64,000 nt of DNA from an uncultured Porphyromonadaceae bacterium (GTDB taxonomy: Bacteria; Bacteroidota; Bacteroidia; Bacteroidales; Muribaculaceae): contig UQLL01000001.1 of NCBI GenBank assembly GCA_900541835.1, forward strand, positions 43,915 to 107,914, written 5' to 3'. A program made the position numbers and the translations under genes. Below the pieces are notes generated by a model, which did no database searches, was not told the origin of the DNA, and saw only the letters and a list, made by a program, of their open reading frames with translations. This document shows, one piece after another, positions 55,420 through 58,694 of this stretch (its first letter is position 1; the number at the start of each line of letters is the position of its first letter).

Positions 55420-57570
55420 TCAGCGGCTGGAGAGGATGCGCTCGCCGTTGAGGAAAGCGAGATGCTTGCGGAAGTCGAGCAGCTCGGCGAGCTGCTTCAT
55501 GGCCTCCAGCTTTTCGGCGTCGGAGGCGCAGGAGAGGATGCGGACCTTGACGTCGGCAATCTGCTGCTCGAGCACACCGGCACGGAGCTCGTTGATGGTG
55601 CGCGGCAGGATCTCGGGCAAGCGTTCGGCCTCGGTCTGCACGGTGCCTGTCTTCCGATGGTAGCGGCTTAGAGTATAGGGCTCCGCCACCATCTGGCAGA
55701 CGAGGGTACGGATGCCGTCGTCCTCGTGGCTGCTGAGCTGACGTCCCAGCCAGGTGGCGGAGAACTCGAAGAGGGCCTTGTCGAAGTCTGCCTGGATTGC
55801 CTCTGTCAGGCGCTGTTCGGCCTGCTCCAGCTCGGGGATGGAAGACTCCGTCTCCGAGAGCTTGGCGATTTCGGCGGATAGGCGTTCTTCGCCTGCTTTC
55901 TCCAGTTCCTCAATCTTAGACGCCTCGGCGGCGGCGTAAGTTTCGCGCAGGGCGAGAATTTCAGTCATGAGGGCCGAACAGAGAGGGTCGGTGAGGTGCA
56001 TGTGGTCGGCCTCCAGCTCGGAATTGACGTACTCGGCGAGGAATACGGGAGTAGGCTCGGGGTCGTCGTCGGTGGCGGCCGGGGAGAAATGGGTCATGCC
56101 GTATCGGACACAGAGTCGGAGCAGGCGGCGCTCCAGCTTCTGTAGTGGTGCGGGGCCGGAGTGTGCAGAGGATGAGAGGGGGGTGCCGGGAGCCGGAGAG
56201 GAGGGGGGCGTCCCGACAGGCGTGGCAGGTGAGGAGGCGGACGCACCAGGGTGCGTCCCTACATGGCGACGCTGCTCTATCAGCTTCTGCGCCACGATGT
56301 CGGCTTCGTAGCTGAGCACCTGTTCGTCGATGCCGAGCAGGCTGGAGCAGGTCTGGATGTAGACGTTGCGCTTGATCTTGTCTGGGATGGCGCCGAGGCT
56401 CTGGACGATGCTGCGTGCCGCCTCGGTGCGCCGTATGGGGTCGCGGGCGTCCTGGAGCAGCACCTGCGTCTTGAAAGTGATGAAGTCGGTGGAATGCCCG
56501 GCGAAATAGCAGCGCACCTCCTCGGGGGTATGCTTGCGGGCGAATGAGTCGGGGTCGTCGTTGTCGGGCAGCAGGAGCACCTTGATGTCCATGCCCTGTG
56601 CCAGGAGCATGTCGATGCCGCGCATGGAGGCCTTGATGCCGGCCGGGTCGCCGTCGTAGACCAGCGTTACGTTGCGGGTAAATCGGTGTATGAGGGCTAT
56701 CTGGGAGTCGGTAAGGGCGGTGCCGGAGCTGGCGATGGCGTTGCGCAGTCCGGCCTGCCACATGCCGATGACGTCCATGTAGCCCTCGACGAGGTAGCAG
56801 CAGTCCGCGCGGCCCATCTCTACGCGGGCCTGGTGGAGGCCGTAGAGTTCGTTGCTCTTGTGGTAGAGGGGGGTCTCGGGTGAGTTGATGTACTTGGCCT
56901 TGGAGCCCTTGAGGTCTCGTCCGCCAAAGGCCACCACCTTTCCGGCGGCGTTAAGCACGGGGTAGATGACGCGTCCGCGGAAGCGGTCGTAGAGTCCGTG
57001 GTCTCCCTTTATCAGCAATCCAAGCTCTACAAGCAGGTCAGTGTTAAAACCATCCTTGCGGGCGAGGGCTTCGAGGACTCTTCGTTCGGGAGCATAGCCG
57101 AGGCGGAAGTGGCGGATTGCCTCGTCGGTGATGCCGCGGCCGTAGAGGTAGCTGAGTCCGATGTTGCGGCCGTCGTCGGTGTCGGTGAGGAAGTGCTGGA
57201 ACTTCTGCATGGCCCACTCGTTGGCCACGAACATGGCCTCTCGCTTTGACTGGGACTCGCGTTCGGCGTCTGTGAGCTCCCGCTCCTCGATGGTGATGCC
57301 GTAGCGGCGGGCAAGCTGTCGCAGGGCGTCCTGGTAGCCGATGCCCTCCATCTCCATGATGAAGTTGACCGGGGAACCTCCCTTGTGGCAAGAGAAGCAG
57401 TAGCAGAAGTTGCGGGCCTTGTTGACCGAGAAGCTGGGAGTGCGCTCGTTGTGGAAGGGGCAGAGGCCCATGTAGTTGGCTCCGCGCCGGATCAGACGCA
57501 CATAATCGCCGACCACCTCTACGATGTCGGCGGCATCCTTGATGCGCTCCGCTGTGGCCTTGTCGATCAT
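55420..57570 (-). CDS. dnaG: DNA primase
   Basis: Zinc ribbon CPFHNERTPSFSV, TOPRIM (EGYMDV...DGDPAG) and a C-terminal helicase-interaction domain. 717 aa from MIDKATAERIK; the upstream Arg-rich extension is read-through. A REP element is in-frame at 56239-56263. Confidence 0.9.
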   Translation of the reverse strand: MIDKATAERIKDAADIVEVVGDYVRLIRRGANYMGLCPFHNERTPSFSVNKARNFCYCFSCHKGGSPVNFIMEMEGIGYQDALRQLARRYGITIEERELTDAERESQSKREAMFVANEWAMQKFQHFLTDTDDGRNIGLSYLYGRGITDEAIRHFRLGYAPERRVLEALARKDGFNTDLLVELGLLIKGDHGLYDRFRGRVIYPVLNAAGKVVAFGGRDLKGSKAKYINSPETPLYHKSNELYGLHQARVEMGRADCCYLVEGYMDVIGMWQAGLRNAIASSGTALTDSQIALIHRFTRNVTLVYDGDPAGIKASMRGIDMLLAQGMDIKVLLLPDNDDPDSFARKHTPEEVRCYFAGHSTDFITFKTQVLLQDARDPIRRTEAARSIVQSLGAIPDKIKRNVYIQTCSSLLGIDEQVLSYEADIVAQKLIEQRRHVGTHPGASASSPATPVGTPPSSPAPGTPLSSSAHSGPAPLQKLERRLLRLCVRYGMTHFSPAATDDDPEPTPVFLAEYVNSELEADHMHLTDPLCSALMTEILALRETYAAAEASKIEELEKAGEERLSAEIAKLSETESSIPELEQAEQRLTEAIQADFDKALFEFSATWLGRQLSSHEDDGIRTLVCQMVAEPYTLSRYHRKTGTVQTEAERLPEILPRTINELRAGVLEQQIADVKVRILSCASDAEKLEAMKQLAELLDFRKHLAFLNGERILSSR
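56239..56263. repeat. REP-like palindrome GGACGCACC-AGG-GTGCGTCCCTACA inside the dnaG coding sequence
   Basis: On the coding strand reads GTAGGGACGCACCCTGGTGCGTCC, encoding VGTHPGAS within the P/S/T-rich linker between the primase core and the C-terminal domain. Confidence 0.8.
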
Positions 57571-58694
57571 CGGTACAGACGTAGGGAGTATGTACGGCCC
57601 GACTCGCCCCGTAGCAGAGCTATGTAGAAGCCGGGGGGGAGGGCGGAGAGGTCTATCTGGGCCATGTCGGTGCCGTGGTAGCGACTCTCGGCCACCCGCA
57701 TCCCGGCCACGTTGTAGACGATGGCCTGCTCGACGCTCTCGGGCAGGTAGACGCTGAACTGGCCTGAACCCTGCCAGGTGACGACGGGTCCGGTGGGGGC
57801 GAGTATCTCGTCGATGGCGGCACGCCGACTCTCCTGCTCGCGGCCTGTCTCCTCGATGAAAGAGTCGTAGAAAGTGAATGGCAGCTCCTCGGTGGCAAGT
57901 TCCTCGGGAGCGCCTATGGGGTTGAAGATGACGGCCATCTCGCCCTGGCTGATGAGTTCGGTGGCGAAAAGGCGATACATGGCGTCGCCAGGCTGGTCGC
58001 TGAAGCGGAGGCGGAAGAAGTCGCCTCTCCTGCCGGTGGCCACTGCGGGCTCCAGCCCTCCCTGGGGGTTGACGATGGCCATGACTACGTTGCGGGCCGT
58101 GCGTAACTCGTCGCCCACCATGGCATCCCACTGCGCCGGAGTATAATAGGCCGACTGCAGGTCGCGCGCGTCGGCGCGGTCGTAGAGGCGGCCTACCTCG
58201 GCCGTGACCTCGTCCCAGGGCAGAAGCAGGTCGGTGACGTCGAGCTGCGGCTGAAGCAGCGAAGCGATATGGTGCTGAATGTCACCCCAGGCCTTGACGG
58301 CCTCCTCGGGTGCCTGCGAATCGTAGCGGATGAACTCGATATGGCGTCCGTACTGGTTAAGCAGAGCCTTCTGCCCGGCCGACAGGCGACCGGCCTCGAG
58401 CTTGCCCTTGAGCGAGTAGGCCAGGATGGGATATGCCTTGTTCTCGGCGCTGACGATGACGAAGCCGCCGGTGGGGTGGCTGAAGACGTAGAAGGGGATG
58501 AACAGGCCGTTGGTGGTGAAGTTGCGGCCAGAGAAAGTGTAGTTGGGCGGCGCCATGCGTATGCCGCGCGCGGCGTTGAAGAAGAGCTCTGCCACGCGCT
58601 GGGCGTCGCGCCGGCTCACCGTCTCCGCCTGCACAACAGGCGCCGTAAGCAGCACCGCCGCCAGTATGACGAGTATGCTTTTCAGCCTTTTCAT
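57567..58694 (-). CDS. Secreted Spi (streptopain-inhibitor/C10-propeptide-like) domain protein with a T9SS C-terminal sorting domain
   Basis: Signal peptide. N-terminal region ...GGFVIVSAENKAYPILAYSLKG typical of the Spi domain. C-terminal ...YNVAGMRVAESRYHGTDMAQIDLSALPPGFYIALLRGESGRTYSLRLYR CTD. ATGA overlap with the dnaG start. Confidence 0.7.
   Translation of the reverse strand: MKRLKSILVILAAVLLTAPVVQAETVSRRDAQRVAELFFNAARGIRMAPPNYTFSGRNFTTNGLFIPFYVFSHPTGGFVIVSAENKAYPILAYSLKGKLEAGRLSAGQKALLNQYGRHIEFIRYDSQAPEEAVKAWGDIQHHIASLLQPQLDVTDLLLPWDEVTAEVGRLYDRADARDLQSAYYTPAQWDAMVGDELRTARNVVMAIVNPQGGLEPAVATGRRGDFFRLRFSDQPGDAMYRLFATELISQGEMAVIFNPIGAPEELATEELPFTFYDSFIEETGREQESRRAAIDEILAPTGPVVTWQGSGQFSVYLPESVEQAIVYNVAGMRVAESRYHGTDMAQIDLSALPPGFYIALLRGESGRTYSLRLYR

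Follow-up and report, generated by a model that had tools for sequence, protein, structure and literature searches.

Gut and oral Bacteroidales are rich in proteases of the C10 family, a family that includes the virulence factors SpeB, interpain, periodontain and Bfp. The control of these enzymes outside the cytoplasm in Bacteroidales is, to our knowledge, poorly understood, and we know only of staphostatin-like partners, described in Bacteroides. Spi of Streptococcus pyogenes, described as an analogue of the propeptide, inhibits SpeB and protects its producer (PMC2873492, PMC3462683). This small protein lacks an export signal and is presumed to act in the cytoplasm; its gene is transcriptionally coupled to speB (PMC2873492, PMC3462683). 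Within the Bacteroidales, BtpZ of Bacteroides thetaiotaomicron is a C10 paralogue with a leader and a propeptide in which no functional cysteine protease is possible; it is a predicted lipoprotein encoded in the btp protease cluster, has a staphostatin-like partner, BtiZ, and loss of the Cys is the only loss reported for it (PMC3462683). Here, we analysed a 64-kb stretch of DNA from an uncultured bacterium of the Muribaculaceae (64,000 nucleotides, hereafter the window), in which an open reading frame (ORF) at 57567..58694 on the minus strand encodes a secreted-looking protein of 375 amino acids (aa) related to both Spi and the C10 proteases, and runs with its stop codon into the start codon of the DNA primase gene dnaG.

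The 375-aa protein and Spi (MEROPS I69; Kagawa et al. 2005, as cited in PMC2873492, PMC3462683) share a homologous domain that in both is free-standing without an active protease. To this domain the 375-aa protein adds a signal peptide, a C10 remnant and a C-terminal domain (CTD) resembling the sorting domains of the type IX secretion system (T9SS), and the 64 kb contain no C10 gene; the arrangement of spi and speB, a small free-standing protein encoded beside its cognate protease gene and co-transcribed with it, was not found. Going by its published description, BtpZ differs in that the present family has a large deletion, a signal peptidase I (SPase I) signal, a T9SS-like CTD and housekeeping neighbours. 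The reading which we favour, with a probability of roughly 0.55, is that the gene encodes an exported, catalytically dead and shortened C10 paralogue, most likely a propeptide-like inhibitor or binder of C10 proteases, and that its overlap with dnaG arose from a rearrangement in one clade. The parts of the gene are as follows, each with the evidence on which it was placed.

57567..58694, minus strand: the whole gene, a putatively exported C10 pseudo-zymogen (Spi-like family protein) of 375 aa; ORF with ATG start, homologues, ratio of non-synonymous to synonymous substitution rates (dN/dS) and AlphaFold2 (AF2) model.
58626..58694, minus strand: predicted signal peptide, aa 1-23 (MKRLKSILVILAAVLLTAPVVQA before ETV), SPase I type; sequence reading, and a helix in the AF2 model.
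58320..58625, minus strand: Spi / C10-propeptide domain (MEROPS I69, Pfam PF13734), aa 24-125; Pfam, family profile and constraint.
57900..58319, minus strand: degenerate remnant of a C10 catalytic domain, aa 126-265, with a homology-supported core, aa 177-245, at 57960..58166; profile comparison.
57795..57899, minus strand: linker with a long helix, aa 266-300, and a conserved PFxFYDxF motif (F273/F275); AF2 model.
57570..57794, minus strand: C-terminal beta-sandwich, a T9SS type-A-like sorting domain, aa 301-375, with a GFY ... KLYR-type end; profile and fold.

The Spi-like, or C10-propeptide-like, N-terminus had been proposed in an earlier note made from the letters of the window, and the domain search bears it out: PF13734 matches aa 23-118 over profile positions 1-97/98 with 65.8 bits (cut-off 25; E 4.9e-18) in a Pfam scan, and is matched by all 52 aligned family members. 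In a search of the sequences of the PDB, the family profile found the SpeB prodomain (E 2.5e-11). The AF2 model has a predicted local distance difference test score (pLDDT) of 92, its propeptide fold aligns to the SpeB zymogen and to prointerpain A, and the SpeB zymogen gave the top matches when the model was searched with Foldseek.

The protein had further been described as consisting of a Spi domain only, and this description must be given up, as aa ~126-265 is a shrunken C10 remnant. The family profile, built from 52 full-length sequences, was compared with PDB sequences and with five true C10 zymogens of related loci. In the hhalign comparison with these five zymogens, it aligned over 234 columns (probability 99, E 4.3e-18), leaving a gap of ~100 residues in the query over the catalytic-Cys motif TGCVATA. 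The match of the family profile to the real C10 proteases of related loci has two segments, the second being shifted by ~100 residues, and among PDB sequences the profile also matches, weakly and collinearly, residues 272-345 of SpeB and 217-257 of interpain, around the catalytic His strand GGHAFVIDG. When propeptides were removed, the middle region alone matched the catalytic domain over 68 columns (aa 177-245; E 2e-6, probability 89.5), and homology thus supports descent of this region from a C10 catalytic domain. The Pfam model of the catalytic domain, PF01640, scores 12.1 bits in the 375-aa protein (cut-off 26; E 0.23) and covers only profile positions 124-164 of 194; it is found at E < 0.1 in 6/52 family members. 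The statement that a C10 catalytic domain is missing is thus correct as regards catalysis and the Pfam cut-off, but overlooks the degenerate remnant.

Compared with proSpeB (1dki) and prointerpain A of Prevotella intermedia (3bb7), the protein has lost ~100 residues together with the Cys motif, carries other residues in place of the His and of the NWGWGG tryptophans, and contains no Cys at all in its 375 residues. The catalytic His (GGHAFV) aligns to E215, a column which is variable and hydrophobic across the family, and NWGW aligns to RFSD. Near-invariant Pro216 was considered as the position of the catalytic His and rejected, since HMMER and hhalign agree in aligning the His one column earlier, with the variable E215. 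Cys-free members number 27 of the 52, and neither Cys nor His is conserved at any position in the alignment of these 52 sequences (Ser was not tabulated). Because the protein is without Cys and the family without a conserved Cys or His, cysteine-protease activity is impossible. Around the former His strand the papain-like fold partly survives, and one may ask whether the protein is an active peptidase with non-canonical catalytic residues; with no Cys, a variable hydrophobic His column and the substrate-cleft half of the fold deleted, we consider this most improbable. What is conserved in the remnant according to the family alignment is W189, which is invariant, and Q188, P216 and R228, which are nearly so. 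The profile comparisons indicate that the 375-aa protein is a truncated, catalytically dead C10 zymogen, and not a protein with a Spi domain only. The domain-level name "Spi family protease inhibitor" is already in public annotation; new here are the recognition of a decayed C10 remnant, of a stepwise reduction across syntenic orthologues and of a pairing with dnaG that is confined to one clade.

The protein search recovered 94 homologues, and when 1.84 billion representatives were searched exhaustively with the family profile, only 63 proteins, at E <= 1e-30, made up the family. Past these 63 members the matches fall off sharply to longer proteins, aligned via the propeptide; two of those were checked, and both proved to be true C10 proteases. 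Only Muribaculaceae-type assemblies yielded members of the family: all 80 genome loci compared stem from uncultured Bacteroidales assemblies, titled Muribaculaceae, Sangeribacter, Amulumruptor or older placeholders, the placement in the Muribaculaceae relying on these record titles and on Sangeribacter being a genus of that family. Three metagenome contigs (L081, L082 and L083) were compared in addition to the 80 loci. In the literature searched, no publication dealt with this family.

None of the 52 aligned homologues, the most distant of which has 33% identity to the query, has lost the reading frame, and of the 26 invariant columns most lie in the Spi domain. Measured against the 89%-identical orthologue on L081, the gene as a whole has a dN/dS of 0.15; the ratio falls to 0.026 in the Spi domain and stands at 0.14 in the remnant (aa 126-265) and at 0.22 in the CTD, while the nearby MFS transporter gene, dnaG and sod give 0.13, 0.11 and 0.04. 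The 375-aa gene is functional and under purifying selection. Loss of the catalytic Cys region and of the His, and the stepwise shrinking of the catalytic domain across orthologues, could be taken for the decay of a C10 protease into a functionless pseudogene or remnant. This explanation is refuted by the intact frames, the invariant columns and an overall dN/dS near the values of the MFS gene and dnaG, and it also sits badly with the pLDDT of the model and with a syntenic position that at least 51 loci conserve; we give it hardly any credence.

The shrinking is most advanced in orthologues of 303-320 aa (L060-L080; e.g. L061 6001..6945 and L075 5995..6927), which occupy the same slot downstream of the MFS gene. 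Missing from them is the beta-sheet of the remnant (query aa ~185-260); still present are a signal peptide, Spi with the helical extension of that domain, the linker helix and the CTD. In the AF2 model of the query the linker helix spans aa 274-298 with a lower pLDDT of 64-82. Since the short orthologues dropped only the remnant, the propeptide and the export signals are the parts retained everywhere and most constrained. Two further size classes were seen. Family variants of ~277 aa are also among the protein-search matches, and one protein of 644 aa (P0125) shares family residues 7-260 (E 3.7e-90) and continues with ~385 residues without a Pfam match; it may reflect a different C-terminal architecture or an error in gene calling.

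The N-terminus, MKRLK followed by a hydrophobic stretch and VQA|ETV, reads as a Sec/SPase I signal, and a lipobox Cys was sought in this signal peptide and not found. In the family alignment the stretch is variable and hydrophobic and ends right before the invariant E24. At the other end, a beta-sandwich occupies the extreme C-terminus of this Sec-signal-bearing protein, and a sorting domain is its best fold match. The earlier assignment of a T9SS sorting domain is accordingly supported by the fold and by the homologues, 35/52 of which at full length match PF18962 at E < 0.1 (best 7.6e-5), but falls below both curated cut-offs in the 375-aa protein itself. One homologue (P0054) has been named a T9SS type A sorting domain protein by NCBI. 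From established type A cargo, such as RemA, RemZ, NucA and FspA of Flavobacterium, mirolase of Tannerella and RgpB of Porphyromonas, the CTD differs in its sub-threshold match, with positions 1-23 of the PF18962 profile unmatched. The only literature found on T9SS in Muribaculaceae was a 2026 preprint predicting T9SS cargo. We infer, with fairly good support, that the 375-aa protein is exported by Sec and then by T9SS. As a separate observation, a 434-aa ORF at 23723..25027 on the minus strand has no Pfam match, and the OmpA-like parts of the CHU_0125 and PorE models match it weakly at 29-34 bits; the cut-offs of these models being at least 600 bits, the match (29 bits for PorE) is not evidence for T9SS.

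A mechanism may be proposed from these observations. The gene would descend from the Spi-propeptide-bearing C10 zymogens (streptopain/interpain-type) of Bacteroidales. Its product would be exported by Sec and then by T9SS to the cell surface or the medium, and would act without catalysis via the propeptide domain, in the periplasm or on the surface. There the propeptide domain may bind and inhibit C10 proteases of the same cell or of its neighbours, as a latency or protection factor, and the protein would be the exported counterpart of the cytoplasmic Spi. Judged from sequence and modelled structure, a role as stand-alone inhibitor is the most plausible function, one that is favoured and not proven. 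The concept of a propeptide copy acting in trans is not without parallel, as a stand-alone subtilisin propeptide-like protein of Plasmodium reportedly inhibits PfSUB1; the families are unrelated and the likeness is an analogy only.

Several observations weigh against this proposal. In the AF2 model the propeptide is packed on the protein's own remnant domain in a zymogen-like manner, which could block the face needed for binding in trans. The C10 proteases described in Bacteroides are paired with staphostatin-like and not Spi-like inhibitors (PMC2873492, PMC3462683). A scan of every six-frame ORF of at least 60 aa with hidden Markov models (HMMs), one of the family and one of true C10 zymogens, found neither a C10 protease nor a second Spi gene in the 64-kb window besides the gene itself, and more than 90% of the related loci are without a C10 gene within 6 kb, so that no cognate target is at hand. 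Regarding export, the sorting domain of the 375-aa protein scores 20.3 bits with TIGR04183 (cut-off 23; E 4e-4) and 17.4 bits with PF18962 (cut-off 27), and Pfam/NCBIfam scans of ~35 ORFs within the window recognised no T9SS core gene and yielded housekeeping genes only, the 64 kb being a sample too small to be informative. The promoter and operon proposed below are, likewise, drawn from a motif match only.

An exported dead zymogen need not inhibit anything: it could be a non-inhibitory binding module, an adhesin, a structural protein or a decoy for factors of the host or of competitors. The remnant is kept and constrained in most members (dN/dS 0.14; W189, Q188, P216, R228), suggesting a role beyond that of the propeptide; the window has no cognate protease gene, and the gene lies amid housekeeping functions (kdsB, pfp, thioredoxin, MFS). 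The Cys-less BtpZ of B. thetaiotaomicron is likewise without an assigned role (PMC3462683). Against a non-inhibitory role speak the strongest constraint, which is on the propeptide (dN/dS 0.026), the group of orthologues that dropped the remnant and kept Spi and CTD, and the fact that inhibition of C10 proteases is the sole experimentally known activity of a free I69 domain (as cited in PMC2873492). We regard such a role as a serious but clearly less probable alternative to inhibition.

Genuine C10 genes do occur near the family: 7-8 of the 80 related loci carry one at a distance of no more than 6 kb, always beside pfp and never adjoining the pseudo-zymogen gene. These neighbouring zymogens are bona fide, with PF13734 and PF01640 at E 1e-57 to 1e-68, and some are ~1000 aa long with LRR_5. 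They were located by HMM at the following positions.

L005, 10180..13113: C10 protease gene.
L015, 6273..9248: C10 protease gene.
L034, 3..2060: C10 protease gene.
L040, 3..1100: C10 protease gene.
L045, 2..973: C10 protease gene.
L052, 3..944: C10 protease gene.
L056, 2..2188: C10 protease gene.
L037, 12658..13053: C10 protease gene.

The proximity suggests that the pseudo-zymogen family arose by local duplication of a C10 gene, and is at most a weak functional hint.

The overlap with dnaG is the other feature of the locus to which the earlier note pointed. Its setting in the window is given by the following features.

57567..57570, minus strand: ATGA stop/start overlap of the 375-aa gene and dnaG, with TGA at 57569..57567 and ATG at 57570..57568; direct reading.
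55420..57570, minus strand: dnaG, DNA primase, 716 aa; Pfam Zn_ribbon_DnaG, DNAG_N, Toprim_2/4 and DnaB_bind.
58726..60141, minus strand: MFS transporter gene, 31 nt upstream of the 375-aa gene, with a probable TTG start at 60141; MFS_1, E 8.7e-17.
53444..55389, minus strand: ABC transporter ATPase (54340..55389) and ABC-2 permease (53444..54343); Pfam.
60164..60171, minus strand: candidate Bacteroidetes-type -7 promoter motif TACCTTTG (TAnnTTTG), with TTTG upstream; motif match only.

The ORF and the overlap of its stop with the dnaG start were read directly from the sequence, as the earlier note had it, and the identity of dnaG was settled by its Pfam domains, Zn_ribbon_DnaG (E 3.5e-34) beginning at residue 4 of the product. 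The pairing had been thought odd, and one reading would be that a secreted inhibitor consisting of Spi only is translationally coupled to dnaG in a meaningful link between secretion and replication. The ATGA is real and is kept in five contexts down to 61% identity, namely the window, L001, L002, L081 (89% identity) and L082 (61%). Inside the upstream gene, dnaG has neither an AT-rich leader nor a promoter motif to itself, and dnaG translation may for this reason rely on ribosomes ending at the spi stop; the overlap may permit re-initiation, dnaG being translated after the upstream stop. In relatives, on the other hand, dnaG lies downstream only in the clade of the query (homologues of at least 55% identity), and L083 (55%) has a 6-nt gap in place of the overlap. 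In homologues of 48% identity or less there is no dnaG behind the gene, which is followed instead by a gene for a 93-aa membrane protein, and co-directional downstream dnaG is absent in 77 of the 80 genome loci, the dnaG of L022 being convergent. The ATGA is not particular to this junction either: co-directional ORFs overlap in this way five times in the window, at 29960, 32554, 39085, 54343 and 57570, the other four joining unrelated genes, DEAD-box helicase to LepA and ABC ATPase to permease among them (one partner ORF, 39082..39735, was not domain-checked). This type of junction is routine in this genome. The protein, moreover, is not Spi-only. A functional coupling with dnaG was rejected, given an adjacency that is clade-limited across the 80 loci and three contigs and ATGA overlaps that are common in the window, and a link between secretion and replication is largely refuted by synteny and very unlikely. 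The spi-dnaG overlap implies no functional link of the two proteins and is an accident of gene order. A rearrangement in one clade would have put dnaG and the ABC transporter behind the pair of MFS and spi.

The conserved partner of the gene is not dnaG but the MFS gene upstream, which is its neighbour across the family: at least 51 of the 80 related loci have the MFS gene directly before the pseudo-zymogen gene, in the same orientation. The MFS start was placed by alignment with L081, whose ATG reads CCG in the window. The family-wide order is kdsB, pfp, (thioredoxin), MFS, pseudo-zymogen gene and 93-aa membrane protein, the last of these following in ~36/80 loci; the 64-kb window has no homologue of the 93-aa protein. 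The ABC pair stands behind dnaG on the same strand and in the same order in L001, L082 and L083. At 60164..60171 lies the sole perfect match to TAnnTTTG on the minus strand within 55300..61200, none being found between the MFS gene, the pseudo-zymogen gene, dnaG and the ABC genes, and a perfect match is likewise situated just upstream of the MFS gene in L081, L082 and L083. This is consistent with a probable operon of MFS, spi, dnaG and ABC genes in the clade of the query, with a putative promoter upstream of the MFS gene. Divergent from the sod-MFS-spi-dnaG block, a predicted lipoprotein of 586 aa with a WG_beta_rep repeat is encoded at 61163..62923 on the plus strand; it adjoins sod in L081 too.

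Other genes of the window deserve brief mention. A 608-aa ORF at 19497..21323 on the plus strand carries MurB (FAD_binding_4 and MurB_C, aa 37-352) in frame with a metallo-beta-lactamase-fold hydrolase (Lactamase_B_2, aa 402-578), and may be a gene fusion. On the minus strand at 40808..42238, a 476-aa ORF with the domains of RmlC (dTDP-4-dehydrorhamnose 3,5-epimerase) and of the reductase RmlD, located beside rmlA and rmlB-like genes, looks like a bifunctional fusion. Two ORFs, 25149..28292 (plus strand, 1047 aa) and 44374..45606 (minus strand, 410 aa), gave no Pfam/NCBIfam match at the thresholds used.

Muribaculaceae are a dominant family of the mouse gut. Going beyond the single protein, one may tentatively speculate that its family constitutes an uncharacterised class of surface-displayed protease regulators, stripped of the catalytic half or, in some lineages, of the whole catalytic domain, delivered by T9SS and presenting the propeptide in trans for self-latency or for extracellular immunity against C10 proteases that competing gut Bacteroidales release; the series from 375 to ~310 aa would then record a stepwise conversion of enzyme to inhibitor. 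We hold this wider idea to be less probable than not, and its consequences are worth stating nonetheless. The label "Spi family protease inhibitor" conceals a degenerate protease domain, a lesson for annotation. If the proposed function is true, the family would offer a clean case of an enzyme evolving into a non-catalytic regulator, and an exported regulator derived from a propeptide would be a second principle by which C10 proteases are controlled in Bacteroidales.

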